A stretch of 64,000 bases of DNA from Candidatus Latescibacterota bacterium. Its GTDB lineage: Bacteria > Latescibacterota > UBA2968 > UBA8231. The stretch lies in NCBI GenBank assembly GCA_965206595.1, contig OZ242214.1:5312001-5376000 (forward strand). The letters are read 5' to 3'. Positions 16,176-19,598 of this stretch are shown here, piece after piece. Both the position numbers and the translations under genes were made by a program. Under the pieces are notes generated by a model. That model was not told the DNA's origin, ran no database searches, and saw nothing but the letters and a program-made list of their open reading frames with translations. Within the stretch, counting starts at the first letter, position 1. Every line of letters begins with the position of its first letter.

Positions 16176-16207
16176 TTGATCTATTAGCCCCCCCCCCCCT
16201 GTATCAT
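16176..16207 (+). promoter_or_regulatory. Putative sigma70 promoter with C12 tract in the spacer
   Basis: TTGATC (16176-16181), then a 20-nt spacer containing C12 (16188-16199), then TATCAT (16202-16207); ~100 nt upstream of the FMN-binding gene. Confidence 0.4.
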
Positions 16208-16304
16208 TGGCCCGCCTTGATTCACCATCGGCAAGCGTGCCAGGAGAAGGTTGGCCGGTCCGCGAGTCGAGGTGATCTTCTCACTTTTTTCGCGGACTGG
16301 AGGC

Positions 16305-16907
16305 ATGACCTCCCGCAAGCCGGCAGTACTGATCGCCTGCGGCCTGATCCTGGGCCTGACCGGCGGAGCGGCCGTTCTCCTCCACCTCTACTCTCAGGCA
16401 AGCGCCCGCCACTTCGATCCCGCGCTTCCCGCGCTCCCCTCCGCGACACAGCTCCTCGCAACCACCCGTCAGTTCGACCCTTCGCTCGCTTCCATCGACC
16501 TCCAGTTGATCCACGAGCCCCGGCCGCTGCCCCGCTCCGGCCTGCTGCAGCTCTACCGGGTCTCCGACAACGGCCGCCCGGTCTACGCCCTGGCGCTGGT
16601 GCGCCACGACATCGCCTGCGGTACCTGCCGCGACCTGCTGGCCGCGGTCTTTCTGACCGCCTCGACCCGGGAGATCGCCGGGGTGGCCCCCTTGGAAGCC
16701 TGGGAGAAGGAGAGCGGCTCCTTCGAACCGGGCGCGTTCCTGGCGCAACTGAAAGGGACCTCTCTGGGAGATTCGTTGCGGCTGGGACAAAACCTGGACG
16801 GCATCAGCGGGGCGACGCTGACCGTCGGCGCCATGCTGAAGGAGCTGCGGGGGCTGCGTTCCTGGTTCGCATCGAGACCGCCAAATGGGAGCAAGGGAAA
16901 TGGCTGA
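16305..16907 (+). CDS. Membrane-anchored FMN-binding-domain protein with CxxC
   Basis: N-terminal TM; HDIACGTCRD; flavinylation-type motif DGISGATLT; RBS GGAGG. Confidence 0.8.
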   Translation: MTSRKPAVLIACGLILGLTGGAAVLLHLYSQASARHFDPALPALPSATQLLATTRQFDPSLASIDLQLIHEPRPLPRSGLLQLYRVSDNGRPVYALALVRHDIACGTCRDLLAAVFLTASTREIAGVAPLEAWEKESGSFEPGAFLAQLKGTSLGDSLRLGQNLDGISGATLTVGAMLKELRGLRSWFASRPPNGSKGNG

Positions 16908-17445
16908 TCCTTCCGGGATGAACCCTATGGTAAGGCCGCTGTCTGCGGCCGCGGGGCTGCTGCTGGCCCTGTGCATCGGCATCGGCGCGCGCCTGGAGAC
17001 CGGGGCGCCGCCCGGGCTGCCGCCCAAGCCGTTCGCCCACCTGCTGGGCCGGCAGGCGCCCGATTTCACATTGCCCGGCCTTGGGGGAGAAACCGTGTCC
17101 CTGGCCAGCGCCCGGGGGTCCGGCCCCTGGCTTCTCTACTTCACCGACGCCGCGTGCGGGGCCTGCAAGGCCGCCTACCCGGCGGTGGAGGCGGCGGCCG
17201 AGGTGCTGCCCATCGTCGCCATCGCCACGGGCGACCCGGATTTGCTCGAGACCAATCTGGGCGGGAGGACGGCGGCCATCGGCCACGACGAGCAGCAGTC
17301 GGTCCACCAGCTCTACGACGTGCGCGGGGTGCCCAGCGCCCTGCTGATCGACCGGCGCGGGGTGGTCCGCCACGCCGCCACCGGCAGCCGCAGTATCACC
17401 GAAGTCCTGGCGGCCTGGAACGAATCGAAGGGAGGAGGGGGATGA
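16900..17445 (+). CDS. TlpA/ResA-like thioredoxin-fold protein (CGAC)
   Basis: Signal/TM segment; APDFTLP; YFTDAACGAC; VRGVPSALLIDRRG. Start may be 16900, 16918 or 16927. Confidence 0.88.
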   Translation: MADPSGMNPMVRPLSAAAGLLLALCIGIGARLETGAPPGLPPKPFAHLLGRQAPDFTLPGLGGETVSLASARGSGPWLLYFTDAACGACKAAYPAVEAAAEVLPIVAIATGDPDLLETNLGGRTAAIGHDEQQSVHQLYDVRGVPSALLIDRRGVVRHAATGSRSITEVLAAWNESKGGGG

Positions 17446-18038
17446 TGGATCGCAATGCACTCAAGCCGGTGCTGGCTGGAGGCGCGCTGGCGCTGGGGTT
17501 GATCGTCGCCCTGGCGACCGGGGAACCGCCCGAGGGCCGGGATGCGCAGTCCTCGCTGCTCCTGCGCGTGGTCGAAGAAGGGGCCGCCCTGCTCTCCCGG
17601 GGCACGCCGGCGCCCGAGTTCGAGCTGCAGGATGTGGCCGGGGAGAACACCGTCAGCCTGGAAGATCTCAAGGGGGCATCTGCGGCCGCCGTATTCGTCA
17701 GCTTCTCCTGTCCGTACAGCCGAAAGCTTATGCACACGGTGCTGGACGAGGGCCTGCCCGATCTGGGCAATCGCCTGCTGTTCATTCAGCGCGGGGGCGA
17801 CACCGGCCGGGAGCCGACGCAGGAAGTGGCAGAGCTGCAGGCCGAACTGTTGACCCGGTTTCCGCTGCTGGAGGATGCCGACGGCAGCACTTTCGACGCC
17901 TACCAAACCAGCGGCGTGCCCACGACCTACCTGCTCGACCCCGAGGGCAGGGTGGCGGCATCCGGCGTCGGTGAGCCGGAGGGAGCCAAGCTGGTACGGT
18001 CCCTGGCAGCCGATGTCCTCGGGCCGAAGGGAAACTGA
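17442..18038 (+). CDS. TlpA-like thioredoxin-fold protein (CPYS, monothiol)
   Basis: TM segment; APEFEL; FVSFSCPYS; SGVPTTYLLDPEG; ATGA overlap with the upstream gene. Confidence 0.85.
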   Translation: MMDRNALKPVLAGGALALGLIVALATGEPPEGRDAQSSLLLRVVEEGAALLSRGTPAPEFELQDVAGENTVSLEDLKGASAAAVFVSFSCPYSRKLMHTVLDEGLPDLGNRLLFIQRGGDTGREPTQEVAELQAELLTRFPLLEDADGSTFDAYQTSGVPTTYLLDPEGRVAASGVGEPEGAKLVRSLAADVLGPKGN

Positions 18039-18039
18039 G

Positions 18040-19101
18040 TTGATACACCTGTTCACCGACCCGGTCTTCCTCGTGGAGACGGCCATGCTCGCCAGCCTGC
18101 TGGCGGTCGGCTTCTACACCAGCTACACCGACCTGAAGGCGAGGTGGGTGCCGAATCGCTACACCCTGACCCTGCTCGGGATCGGCCTCGTCGGGCAGAC
18201 GGTGATGATAGCGCTCGACGTGACCACGTTCGGCCGCGTCGCCGCTTTGCTCGGTATCGGCCTGGCGATCGCAGTGGGGCTGACCCGGTTTAGGTTCTGG
18301 GCGATGGGGGACGCCAAGCTGTTCTGGGCCGCGGTGGCGGCCCTGCCCCCGAGCCTGTGCCCGTCGCCCGATCCCCTGGCGCCGCAGGCGCCCCCGTTCG
18401 CCCTGATCCTGAACAGTCTGCTCTGCTACCTCGTCGTGCTGCTGCTGGTGCCGCTGTGGCGCCGCGAGGAAGAGACGCGCCCGCACCGGCCCGGGGGGCG
18501 GCAGTGGCTGCGCGCCGCCTGGGGCCTGGCCGGGCTGCTGGGCCTGGCCCTGGCGTTCGCCTTTCTCGTGCTCCAGCGCCCGCTCAGCTACCTCGAGGCG
18601 CTCGTGGCCTTGATCGCCGGCTGGGTCCTGCTGGAACGGGGACTGGAGGAGAAATACTGGAGCGTGATTCTGCTGCCCGGACTTGCCGCCCTGCTCTACC
18701 TGTCCTACGCGACCGGGGCCTGGCAGACCTGCGTGCTGATGCTGGGCGCGGTCTGGCTGCTGGAGCTGGTGTATCTGCAGGTGCGGCACCAGTACGGCCG
18801 CGCCCTGGTGCAGTCGTTTCCGGTCGGCGAGGTCCAGGCCGGGGACGTGCCCCGGCGCCGACTGGAGCTGGAGAAAGGCGGTGGGGTTGTGTTCGAAGCG
18901 GGCCAGCCGCTGTCGCAGAAGCAGGCGAGCCGCCTGCGTGAGCTGGGCAGGCAGGGCAGGCTGTCGGACGATTCCATCGAGCTGGAACAGGCGTTTCCGT
19001 TCGTACCGTTCATCGCCGCCGGGGCGCTGCTGACCGCGGTGTTCGCCGGCAACCTGGCGCCGCCCCTGGTCGATCTGGTGATATGGCTCAGAGGGCAATA
19101 A
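18040..19101 (+). CDS. A24 family prepilin peptidase (TadV/CpaA/FlaK-like)
   Basis: Catalytic-type Asp motifs SYTDLKARWVPN and AMGDAKL; multiple TMs; C-terminal PFVPFIAAG typical of A24 peptidases. Confidence 0.9.
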   Translation: MIHLFTDPVFLVETAMLASLLAVGFYTSYTDLKARWVPNRYTLTLLGIGLVGQTVMIALDVTTFGRVAALLGIGLAIAVGLTRFRFWAMGDAKLFWAAVAALPPSLCPSPDPLAPQAPPFALILNSLLCYLVVLLLVPLWRREEETRPHRPGGRQWLRAAWGLAGLLGLALAFAFLVLQRPLSYLEALVALIAGWVLLERGLEEKYWSVILLPGLAALLYLSYATGAWQTCVLMLGAVWLLELVYLQVRHQYGRALVQSFPVGEVQAGDVPRRRLELEKGGGVVFEAGQPLSQKQASRLRELGRQGRLSDDSIELEQAFPFVPFIAAGALLTAVFAGNLAPPLVDLVIWLRGQ

Positions 19102-19214
19102 CGGAAGGAGGTGAGGCCCTTATCGCCGCGCAGGCTGGCTGCGCGAAGTTTCAAGGGGATGGGATGGGAAGGGGAGGTTCACCACAAAACCCTTGTCTTC
19201 CAAGAGGAGGATGA

Positions 19215-19598
19215 ATGATGTTCAACAAGATCCGGACCGCGATAGTCGCGGTCGCAAGCAACCCCGTCGCGGTGGTGAAGGACGCCATGGAGTCCGCCGC
19301 AAAGGCGATCGAAGCCACCCTCGACGGAACGTTCCTCGGCGAGTTCATCATGAGCGAGAGCGGCCGGGTGAACCCGGAGCAGGGTTTCCGGCTCGCCTGG
19401 GGAGCGGGGGTGATCGTCGCCGCCATGGTCGTGCTGGGCACGCCGCCCCAGGCGGCGGCCCACCATTGCAAGAACTATTCGTATCTCTATTGTGACTCCA
19501 CCGCGCAGTGCCAGGCGTGGTGCCGGGTTGCGAAGGGCTGCTGGGGGGGCAGTTGTACAACTCACTGTGCGGAGCACACAGAGTGTCGTTGCAGTTAA
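19215..19598 (+). CDS. Precursor peptide: Flp-pilin-like leader and helix plus Cys-rich defensin-like core
   Basis: RBS GAGGAGG; FIMSESG|RVNPEQG followed by a hydrophobic stretch; PQAAA; 45-aa C-terminus with 9 Cys including CxxxC, GxC and CxC. Confidence 0.8.
   Translation: MMFNKIRTAIVAVASNPVAVVKDAMESAAKAIEATLDGTFLGEFIMSESGRVNPEQGFRLAWGAGVIVAAMVVLGTPPQAAAHHCKNYSYLYCDSTAQCQAWCRVAKGCWGGSCTTHCAEHTECRCS

Follow-up and report, generated by a model that had tools for sequence, protein, structure and literature searches.

What might a pilin-type A24 peptidase do in a genome where no pilus machinery is detected, encoded beside thioredoxin-like proteins and a small Cys-rich precursor? The question arises from a locus in a 64,000-nucleotide stretch (the window) of a Candidatus Latescibacterota bacterium whose genome is a single contig of 7,053,161 bases and 92.9% complete. 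Positions 16305-19598 (+ strand) hold five co-oriented ORFs, the same five that a first-pass annotation had claimed, and all were confirmed; in order they encode an FMN-binding-like protein, TlpA-like proteins 1 and 2, the A24 peptidase and the Cys-rich precursor. The first four overlap or abut, as had been described (genes 1 and 2 overlap by 23 nt, genes 2 and 3 by 4 nt, and genes 3 and 4 are separated by 1 nt), and a gap of 113 nt precedes gene 5. We consider it somewhat probable (about 55%) that the locus works as a self-contained cassette in which small cysteine-stabilised exported proteins are matured, with a pilin-type A24 peptidase working outside any pilus system; its peptidase cleavage, disulfide chemistry and biological activity we infer.

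The gene arrangement is far beyond chance and is repeated in the same genome and in other genomes. The cassette occurs three times in the 7.05 Mb: in the window, as a second complete copy at G000:C1:~2.4404-2.4437 Mb and as a third, broken copy at 0.595 Mb. A precursor paralogue adjoins the second A24 gene of the genome, and the two paralogous cassettes share 79-88% identity in their enzymes and 41% in their precursors. Related Latescibacterota also carry the cassette. The A24 family is found in 33 of 168 genomes of the phylum and the precursor profile likewise in 33, with both in 30, counts that overstate independence because genomes of one phylum are kin. Precursor matches without an A24 match occur in three genomes. 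Two genomes with a full-length A24 gene and no profile match carry a precursor ORF downstream all the same, at 30 and 241 bp, so that, with unprofiled ORFs included, peptidase and precursor occur together in 32 of the 33 A24-family genomes; the remaining one has just an A24 fragment of ~60 residues with a stop codon. A precursor lies within 5 kb of 40 of the 44 full-length A24 genes, and there are up to 16 precursor copies per genome. Within one genus (31 genomes) both are present in 18, the precursor only in 1 and neither in 12. Peptidase and precursor stay paired even where peptidase identity has fallen to 25% and the redox partner has changed. The neighbourhood predicted by the first-pass annotation is largely found: TlpA pairs and short Cys-rich ORFs with conserved leader and variable core recur beside the peptidase, whereas the FMN-binding gene is confined to the subclade of the window and is missing from most clades.

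The conserved neighbourhood also includes arrays of secreted CBM9-like proteins. In the window, tblastn neighbourhoods and CBM9_1 clusters point to one of 296 aa (19771..20661, +), which carries the C-terminal tag ...SWARIKASLSQ, followed by a tandem paralogue (20810..21691, +). The duplication spans ~1,035 bp; its direct repeats are 88-89% identical and the two proteins 82%. Such proteins are frequent, not obligate, neighbours of the cassette, and two A24 copies of one genome (L012 and L013) have only CBM9-like genes around them. A remnant of 52 nt (22120..22171, +) resembles the 3' end of an A24 gene, being 79% identical to 19000-19051.

The peptidase gene (18040..19101, +) starts at TTG 18040 or ATG 18085 and encodes up to 353 aa of a GxGD-type aspartyl peptidase, which matches Peptidase_A24 (PF01478) with 40.9 bits against a cut-off of 26.5. 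Both Asp motifs noted in the first reading of the sequence, D31 and G90-D91-x-K93, are invariant among the homologues, even at 25% identity. A methyltransferase domain is absent. The hydropathy profile has ~8 hydrophobic segments, with a soluble insert of ~70 aa before the last helix. A24 peptidases cleave after Gly.

The precursor gene (19215..19598, +) is preceded by AGGAGG and encodes 127 aa with nine Cys, as had been stated. Its family (164 representative clusters) shares one architecture: a leader ending in F-x-x-S-E-S-G, a short polar spacer, one helix, A-x-A and a hypervariable Cys-rich core. In the window the leader motif is F44-I-M-S-E-S-G50 (19344..19364, +), and column counts over 66 sequences give F44 in 58, S in 43, E48 in 58, S/T in 55 and G50 in 64, with Ala in two. 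A24 cleavage is proposed to leave G50 at position -1. Leaders are mostly 11-23 residues long, and their last seven residues, F-x-x-[S/D]-E-x-G, have what we take to be the spacing of Flp leaders (F-x-x-D-E-S-G). To this extent, confined to those seven residues, the pilin-type leader suggested earlier stands; no XXXXEY or E+5 feature is present in the precursor leaders, a stretch of 8-10 polar residues lies between Gly and helix, A-x-A follows the helix, and Pfam Flp_Fap gives no match to the precursors even at E<=10. These features set the leader apart from a canonical pilin (class III) signal. Hydropathy and column counts place a single membrane helix at ~residues 57-75, followed by P77 and A80-x-A82 (19383..19460, +), which are conserved in 46/66 (P77), 54/66 (A80) and 54/66 (A82) precursors; A-x-A is a signal-peptidase-I-type site. 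The helix has 16-19 residues with basic residues ahead of it. Directly before it, G57 is a less conserved small residue (G in 33, A in 15 and S in 8 of 66) and a candidate alternative cut site. Signal peptidase I alone could mature the precursor, since the part left after the Gly cut would look like a normal Sec signal peptide, complete with basic n-region, h-region and A-x-A.

Residues 85-127 (19467..19595, +) form the Cys-rich core, predicted to be cysteine-stabilised alpha/beta (CS-alpha/beta), in agreement with the defensin-like character originally proposed. The AF2 model of the window precursor has a pLDDT of ~90 over residues 89-127, with a helix (96-107) that holds CxxxC and a hairpin (112-117/121-126) whose last strand holds CxC; every PDB fold match listed is a defensin, a scorpion toxin or a relative of these. 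The window core has the published CS-alpha/beta Cys pattern, which is found only in 50 of the 149 representatives and 13 of the 20 locus precursors; 111 of the 149 have an even number of at least 6 Cys. Mean pairwise identity is 0.33 in leader plus helix versus 0.10 at non-Cys core positions. Core charge has a median of -2 (132/166 negative), unlike antimicrobial defensins. As the cores are hypervariable and mostly non-cationic, one may speculate that their role, in competition or defence, is to bind or inhibit specific outside targets and not the membrane lysis of classical defensins.

The other three genes encode putative redox proteins. Gene 1 (16305..16907, +) specifies a membrane-anchored RnfG/NqrC-like protein of 200 aa with one N-terminal hydrophobic segment, the motif RHDIAC-x-x-C and the flavinylation motif D-G-I-S-G-A-T. 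Its start had been placed at 16176; ATG 16305 is most likely, because the homologues begin with MT..RK.PAVL. Pfam FMN_bind scores 14.6 bits (E 0.053), under the 22-bit cut-off. An FMN-binding fold is supported by the AF2 model (pLDDT 75.8), whose six best PDB fold matches are RnfG and NqrC. Across 17 homologues, the most distant at 30% identity, neither the [S/T]GA[S/T] flavinylation motif nor the CxxC varies. The genome has one copy of ApbE. TlpA-like protein 1 (16885..17445, +) is a TlpA/ResA-like thioredoxin-fold protein (AhpC-TSA 44.8 bits, Redoxin 28.9 bits) whose one hydrophobic segment is an N-terminal membrane anchor. Its CGAC motif is retained as CxxC in 12/14 homologous loci hits and reads SKAC at two loci. 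TlpA-like protein 2 (17442..18038, +; AhpC-TSA 39.3 bits) has CPYS in the window, where other clades have CxYC. At most loci the A24 gene is flanked by TlpA genes; among distant relatives a multihaem cytochrome-DsbA fusion substitutes for the FMN/TlpA genes, and at three distant loci it is a cytochrome c554 + DsbA/GILT fusion that takes the place of the TlpA genes.

On the maturation-cassette reading, the precursor would use its one helix to enter the inner membrane, with the N-terminus inside and the Cys-rich domain outside, and the A24 peptidase would cut F-x-x-S-E-S-G behind its near-invariant Gly to remove the leader. Formation and reshuffling of the ~four disulfides in the periplasmic core may then fall to the two TlpA-like thioredoxins, both membrane-anchored; the flavinylated FMN-binding CxxC protein would drive them here, and the multihaem cytochrome-DsbA fusion in distant clades. 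As TlpA/ResA proteins are classically reductants, and the active sites include CPYS and SKAC, electrons might also flow the other way. General disulfide formation by DsbB or VKOR would not be available, as the genome has neither. The folded defensin-like domain might stay anchored by its helix or be freed at A-x-A by signal peptidase I. The cassette encodes nothing besides proteolysis and disulfide chemistry, and the term 'RiPP-like', applied to it before, finds no support.

The chief competing possibility, clearly less probable, is that these are Sec precursors matured by signal peptidase I, with the A24 enzyme acting alongside signal peptidase I, or after it, as a signal-peptide peptidase or regulator that clears or releases the long leader-plus-helix remnant, or gates export, and does not make the mature N-terminus. 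The conserved P77, A80 and A82 (46-54/66) behind a helix of 16-19 residues with basic residues before it would suit this, as would the distance of the proposed Gly from the helix, 8-10 residues, unlike pilins; A24 enzymes and signal peptide peptidases are moreover the same GxGD type of protease. General clearing needs neither a near-invariant seven-residue motif ending in Gly nor a peptidase gene per cassette. As two cuts are possible, this alternative is partly compatible with the maturation cassette. We think it improbable that the locus is a thiol/flavin (or haem) electron-transfer chain outside the cytoplasm with the Cys-rich protein as its redox-active or metal-binding end component. TlpA/ResA-type proteins classically act as reductants, and the window precursor has an odd number of Cys (nine); in the available portion of PMC8238504, FMN_bind, cytochromes and thioredoxin-like proteins are three extracytosolic carrier classes, and hybrid clusters exist. 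Against such a chain stand the confidently predicted CS-alpha/beta core with structural CxxxC/CxC pairing, the prevailing even Cys counts, the ~10% identity at non-Cys core positions, more readily expected of a diversifying binder than of a conserved redox site, and the multiplicity of precursors within genomes.

That the small proteins are true, if unusual, type IV (Flp-like) pilins, assembled by machinery that our searches missed, seems very unlikely. The topology is pilin-like (a leader ending in Gly, one N-terminal helix, a putatively disulfide-bonded C-terminal domain), and some peptidase homologues are annotated at source as CpaA or prepilin peptidase. The absence of a pilus ATPase and TadB/C, reported earlier for the 64 kb, however extends to the whole 7,053,161-base genome, where PF00437 (ATPase) and PF00482 (TadB/C-type platform) have no match, in searches whose controls were positive in 13/14 genomes; PF00437 is also missing in 29/33 A24-family genomes, including 11/12 single-contig ones, Flp_Fap is found in 0/168 genomes of the phylum, and the precursors depart from pilins in the leader and spacer features given above. 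Least credible of all is adjacency without shared function. The CBM9-like family numbers ~70 copies in this genome, extends beyond the A24 family and occurs in many peptidase-free genomes (81/168), which makes some adjacency in this lineage cheap; the joint occurrence in 32/33 genomes and proximity at 40/44 genes contradict this reading, as does a pairing kept across divergent peptidases and a change of redox partner.

Parts of the cassette resemble known systems. Within the text available from PMC4322843, TadV cuts Flp after the Gly of G/XXXXEY and, like CpaA and the cassette enzyme, is an A24 peptidase with two catalytic Asp and no methyltransferase domain; the cassette enzyme is ~200 residues longer, with more helices and the soluble insert. 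The precursor shares with the Flp prepilins of Tad (type IVc) pili a leader ending in Gly and one hydrophobic helix, and differs in lacking XXXXEY and in having a polar spacer, an A-x-A site and a Cys-rich domain of 40-50 residues; the Tad ATPase and platform are absent from this genome and the precursors have no Flp_Fap match. In the Sulfolobus bindosome, as far as the consulted part of PMC4471445 goes, PibD-type processing acts on non-pilin sugar-binding proteins with class III signal peptides, that is, on proteins that build no classical pilus; the cassette peptidase is weakly similar to the C-termini of archaeal EppA/Arc_PepC_II. The bindosome's surface localisation needs a canonical type IV filament system (PMC4471445, same part), none of which is detectable here, and the putative substrates of the cassette peptidase are small and disulfide-rich, with redox genes of their own. 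ApbE-flavinylated FMN_bind clusters likewise combine a membrane-anchored FMN_bind-type domain, [S/T]GA[S/T], genomic ApbE and thioredoxin-like neighbours; those described as thioredoxin-linked in the sections of PMC8238504 at hand are the DsbD/DUF3570/DUF4266 and P19 iron systems, and those sections speak neither of a CxxC within the FMN-binding protein nor of an A24 peptidase or Cys-rich precursors.

No Pfam or NCBIfam model and no publication was found that covers the cassette, consistent with the original impression of an unrecognised class. Its logic is that of the disulfide bacteriocin clusters (sublancin, glycocins), which combine a conserved leader and variable core with a dedicated leader protease and dedicated thioredoxin-fold proteins. 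Those clusters use C39-peptidase ABC exporters, double-Gly leaders and often a glycosyltransferase, whereas the cassette has an A24 intramembrane aspartyl peptidase, presumably exports through Sec, and would have the flavinylated CxxC protein or the multihaem-DsbA fusion as electron sink. The window core also has the Cys pattern CX(2,18)CX(3)CX(2,12)CX(4,17)CXC of the bacterial cis-defensins, a group of CS-alpha/beta peptides known from myxobacteria, Actinomyces and other bacteria and divided in a 2024 proposal into five classes; its predicted fold is a helix plus hairpin, and its best PDB matches are plant/fungal defensins and scorpion toxins. The published cis-defensin set comprises 74 peptides from Proteobacteria, Acidobacteria and Actinobacteria, chosen for ordinary signal peptides, and the publication's text has no mention of Latescibacter, prepilin or 'gene cluster'. 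The cassette peptides differ from cis-defensins in their conserved extra leader, dedicated peptidase, redox genes and mostly anionic cores. In a bacterium whose genome lacks the pilus ATPase and platform genes, the cassette may represent an apparently undescribed route by which secreted mini-proteins are matured.

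The five genes of the cassette stand head to tail on the forward strand of a genome that consists of a single contig (7,053,161 bases, 92.9% complete), arranged as the first-pass annotation had described them except that the first gene more likely starts at 16305. The window takes in positions 5312001–5376000 of this contig. This gene (16305–16907) encodes a 200-residue FMN-binding-like protein with one hydrophobic segment at its N-terminus. It is followed by two thioredoxin-fold proteins, Tlp1 (16885–17445; AhpC-TSA 44.8 bits, CGAC) and Tlp2 (17442–18038; AhpC-TSA 39.3 bits, CPYS), by the A24 peptidase [18040–19101; PF01478 40.9 bits (cut-off 26.5), E = 3e-10] and, after a gap of 113 nt that carries an AGGAGG site, by the ORF of the precursor, which has 127 residues and nine Cys (19215–19598). 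Promoter and terminator scans gave no signal exceeding that of shuffles. A search of sequencing runs listed no RNA run with the sequence, a result that says nothing about expression. A run of 12 C (16188–16199) lies about 105 nt 5' of the first gene and could act as a slipped-strand switch or be prone to assembly error.

The same genome holds a second complete cassette at ~2.4404–2.4437 Mb, with the gene order seen in the window. Compared with the window, its FMN-binding protein, Tlp1, Tlp2 and peptidase are 87.5%, 85%, 84% and 79% identical, the CBM9-like neighbours of the cassette 57–62% and the precursor 41%. A third copy (595301–597282) is broken: the FMN-binding protein, Tlp1 and Tlp2 are 85–91% identical and the peptidase match ends after ~80 codons. 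Transposase-like ORFs come after this broken peptidase gene, and ORFs of this kind are also present in locus L008. Decayed remnants of the cassette are located at 2086385–2087645 and 4955466–4955962. In the window itself, 52 nt just past the two CBM9-like genes (22120–22171) match the peptidase gene at its 3' end (19000–19051) with 79% identity and point to a tandem copy of the unit that has decayed.

Scanning one genome per species yielded 17 loci, at most of which tblastn and an ORF scan place TlpA genes and a small Cys-rich ORF beside the peptidase, with a differing gene order in some. Across 168 genomes of the phylum the peptidase profile and the precursor profile each match in 33; both are present in 30, the peptidase alone in three and the precursor alone in three. 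Two of the peptidase-only genomes have a full-length peptidase gene, and a precursor-like ORF missed by the profile lies 30 or 241 bp downstream, the two leaders terminating in D-E-S-G and D-E-R-G. The third has only a peptidase fragment with a stop codon. Forty of the 44 full-length peptidase matches have a precursor within 5 kb; the other four comprise two loci of one genome with only CBM9-like genes around them (L012 and L013), a third at the edge of a contig and a fourth in G118, a genome of the phylum. Within one genus (31 genomes) both genes occur in 18, the precursor alone in one and neither in 12; genomes of one phylum being kin, these counts should be read as a pattern and not as a statistical test. 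It is very probable that peptidase and precursor work together.

The first-pass annotation had proposed a peptidase and leader dedicated to a Cys-rich peptide with its own redox module, and had named as its test whether homologous peptidases sit beside TlpA and Cys-rich genes. That genomic test is passed; amendments are needed on the type of leader, on how far the cluster extends, on the FMN gene and on the label RiPP. This label is not supported, Pfam and NCBIfam scans of the seven cassette proteins having found no modifying enzyme beyond leader protease and disulfide formation.

For the precursor family, 20 sequences from the loci were aligned. Three ORFs whose N-termini lack the motif and look frame-shifted (L016:9094-9465, L021:5384-5653 and L023:11411-11752) were left out before alignment A2, as was locus L015, a near-duplicate of L014. 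The precursors open with a basic N-terminus, the motif F-x-x-S-E-S-G and 8–10 polar residues with Lys/Arg; G-L-P-V-A-W then leads into a single hydrophobic helix, which is followed by Pro, A-x-A and a Cys-rich stretch of 40–50 residues. Searching 1.84 billion representative proteins with the profile returns 164 members at E ≤ 0.001, of which 33 reach E ≤ 1e-10; nearly all members have lengths of 63–144 residues. Among 66 members (numbering of the window's precursor), the leader residues are conserved in 58 (F44), 43 (S47), 58 (E48), 55 (S/T49) and 64 (G50, the other two having Ala); on the helix side the counts are 33 for G57 (Ala in 15, Ser in eight), 47 for W62, 46 for P77 and 54 each for A80 and A82. 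A24 prepilin peptidases cut after a Gly at the cytoplasmic end of the helix of their substrate; of such a site the conserved Gly is seen here, and the peptidase would cleave directly after it. The leader measures 11–23 residues in most members and 50 in the window's precursor, and the shortest leaders consist of Met, two to three residues and the motif. Mean pairwise identity is 0.33 over leader and helix versus 0.10 at the non-Cys positions of the core. No model of NCBIfam 20.0 or Pfam-A describes the family, and the stray matches among the 66 members are weak (NCBIfam HxsA3 in two, Pfam AtDEF-like in one). Two other genomes of the phylum, G129 and G145, have 16 and 12 matches to the precursor profile, part of them clustered by the single peptidase gene and part megabases off; several of these precursor genes have in-frame stop codons.

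The core is predicted to adopt a cis-defensin-like fold, a helix packed on an antiparallel hairpin. In the AlphaFold model built from the 66-row alignment (pLDDT ~90 for residues 89–127), the helix spans residues 96–107 and carries C-x-x-x-C, and the hairpin (112–117/121–126) closes in C-x-C. The PDB matches listed are all plant or fungal defensins, scorpion toxins, brazzein or designed cystine-dense peptides [for example 6lcq_A, probability 0.98, and 1j5j, target TM-score 0.82, r.m.s.d. 0.8 Å], with Foldseek E values of only 0.2–2, as expected for a domain of ~40 residues. The CS-alpha/beta Cys pattern CX(2,18)CX(3)CX(2,12)CX(4,17)CXC (PMC11561630) fits the window's precursor, 13 of the 20 locus precursors and 50 of 149 representatives; since only part of the family follows it, the leader goes with several Cys frameworks. 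Most cores carry a negative charge (median -2; 132 of 166 negative, 19 positive), which speaks against action in the classical cationic manner. In one ORF (L012:5132-5524) a CBM9-like N-terminal part of 100 residues, signal peptide included, is fused to a Cys-rich C-terminus that ends C-Y-C-Y; the ORF looks like a recombination chimera of the two variable gene families.

The two Asp motifs of the peptidase, D31 and G90-D91-x-K93, show no change across 21 relatives or in six aligned sequences from relatives of only 25% identity. The enzyme has no methyltransferase domain, approximately eight hydrophobic segments and a soluble insert of ~70 residues before the last helix, and is weakly similar to the C-termini of archaeal EppA / Arc_PepC_II. 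A sequence search finds 74 relatives, few of which are named (prepilin peptidase, CpaA, PulO-like); the peptidase profile has no match at E ≤ 1 among PDB sequences. Complex prediction for the peptidase with precursor residues 30–84 scored 0.03 (mark 0.32), a value that weighs neither way on binding. The window's enzyme shares with A24/TadV-like prepilin peptidases the Pfam match and the two Asp residues, the second in G-D-x-K, whereas the partner system of type IV filaments (ATPase, platform) is absent. PF00437 and PF00482 have no match in the genome under study, and the same searches are positive in 13 of 14 control genomes. PF00437 is also absent from 29 of the 33 peptidase-positive genomes (of the other four genomes, three have weak matches, E 1e-26 to 1e-30, and the fourth a strong one) and from 11 of the 12 that are single contigs. 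To our knowledge, reviews treat A24 peptidases and type IV filaments as inseparable.

The leader can be compared with that of Flp pilins, which has the spacing F-x-x-D-E-S-G. The cassette leader has this spacing and the Gly in common with them, but departs from the XXXXEY sequence and from Flp_Fap. Flp_Fap has no match in any of the 168 phylum genomes, which were searched for real Flp leaders to compare, so the likeness to Flp leans on this short motif; Pfam likewise gives no Flp_Fap match on the window's precursor or on the 66 family members, nor, at E ≤ 10, on eight leader fragments. As in pilins, the leader of the family is short, basic and ends in Gly. Neither G/XXXXEY nor E at +5 with a helix from +1 describes what follows, EY being absent, +5 being E, K, R or Q, and 8–10 polar residues standing before the helix. 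TadV, which is without a methyltransferase domain, processes Flp prepilins directly behind the Gly of G/XXXXEY (PMC4322843). Of non-pilin substrates, the accessible text of a review (PMC4471445) names only the Sulfolobus bindosome proteins, and these still need a canonical filament system. Literature on prepilin/A24 peptidases with Cys-rich proteins, defensins, non-pilin substrates, bacteriocins or RiPPs describes no such system in the portions of text available.

The redox genes complete the cassette. On the first protein FMN_bind (PF04205) scores 14.6 bits, below its cut-off of 22, and precomputed annotation gives it to one of 43 homologues, so by Pfam alone the assignment is unconvincing. 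RHDIAC-x-x-C and a flavinylation-type D-G-[IL]-[ST]-G-A-T are invariant in 17 homologues of identity down to 30%, and G169-A170-T171 is invariant among homologues; [S/T]GA[S/T] is the target motif of ApbE (PMC8238504, in the part available). The genome has one ApbE gene (263.8 bits). The AlphaFold model (pLDDT 75.8) has RnfG/NqrC proteins as its top six PDB matches (best E 6e-4, probability 1.00). Motifs, predicted fold and ApbE together support the assignment to an RnfG/NqrC-like FMN_bind protein, which may be analogous to sulfhydryl oxidases that combine a flavin with CxxC, among them Erv and QSOX. Among the loci compared, its gene is confined to the window's subclade. Tlp1 and Tlp2 are TlpA/ResA-like, with an AhpC-TSA/Redoxin thioredoxin fold on a membrane anchor, and all three redox proteins are so anchored; NCBIfam ResA scores 43 (cut-off 170), far too low for ResA equivalogs. 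The Tlp2 active site is CPYS in the window's clade and CxYC elsewhere. DsbB and VKOR were not found in the genome, which has one DsbD-type membrane protein.

At three distant loci, with peptidases 24–27% identical, the peptidase adjoins instead a protein of ~650 residues (L023:8992-10971, L024:10754-12691 and L025:9142-11082) that joins a cytochrome c554-type multihaem region to a DsbA/GILT thioredoxin domain at the C-terminus and has an anchor at the N-terminus, and two to three precursors with the same leader follow. These fusions may be haem-coupled disulfide oxidases. That another cofactor and another thioredoxin fold occupy the same position speaks for a requirement of the cassette for thiol-disulfide chemistry by an enzyme to which an electron carrier is coupled.

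The two CBM9-like neighbours in the window (19771–20661 and 20810–21691) belong to a family of secreted proteins of ~300 residues, which gives 96 tblastn HSPs in the genome, 49 of them near full length, and which the Atlas ties to CBM9_1 clusters. Nearly all of the 70 HSPs that reach the C-terminus end in ...SAVESVSWGRIKASLE plus one to three residues, a tag that looks like an unrecognised sorting or secretion signal. The G+C content of these genes is 0.54 versus 0.66–0.69. The family is present in 81 of the 168 phylum genomes, many of them without the peptidase, and is therefore independent of it. Distant cassettes have arrays of PD40 beta-propellers in place of the CBM9-like proteins (L023:15025-16074, L024:9554-10633 and L025:12159-15429), with a W-G-x-[IL]-K end tag (e.g. 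...TWGELKR and ...SMWGWLKAL...). As the tag is found in both array families, the feature that array proteins share may be the tag and not the fold.

In the mechanism that we propose, the peptidase would cut the precursor after G50, the TlpA pair and the putative flavoprotein would form and shuffle the disulfides of the core, and the product would be kept anchored or set free at A-x-A; we put the probability of this mechanism as a whole at roughly 0.55. Its main weakness is that the remnant left by a cut at G50 resembles a normal Sec signal peptide, which makes a two-step or a signal-peptidase-only route possible. Other proteins of the locus were considered as substrates of the peptidase and rejected. 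The TlpA and FMN proteins have N-termini without the conserved Gly motif, and the CBM9-like proteins have ordinary signal peptides without it, some 70 copies in the genome and a spread over nearly half of the phylum genomes (81/168).

Beyond cleavage of the precursor at G50 and oxidation of its core, a joint reading of all loci can be offered tentatively, at a little under even odds. In bacteria without any type IV filament machinery, A24 peptidases would act independently of filaments as dedicated leader peptidases for a large family of hypervariable, Cys-stabilised exported mini-proteins (at least 164 clusters at 50% identity, some with a defensin fold), each cassette generating disulfides de novo in replacement of DsbB/VKOR, by way of a flavinylated RnfG-like CxxC protein with TlpA or of a multihaem cytochrome fused to DsbA. 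The cassette is assembled from known families. If the joint reading is true, it would establish a new class of system for the maturation of ribosomal peptides, along with a new periplasmic disulfide route.

A 2024 survey of bacterial cis-defensins collected 74 from three phyla, picked for ordinary signal peptides (PMC11561630), and in the available portion of its text the words Latescibacter, prepilin and 'gene cluster' do not appear. The family described here would add to bacterial defensin-fold peptides a well-populated branch linked to its own machinery, which bears on the origin of eukaryotic cis-defensins. A24 peptidases would gain a role outside type IV filaments, and the cassettes point to flavin- or haem-driven disulfide formation in bacteria without DsbB and VKOR. 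The conserved leader together with the peptidase is a possible handle for genome mining, leading to hundreds of unexplored disulfide-rich mini-proteins in uncultured phyla.
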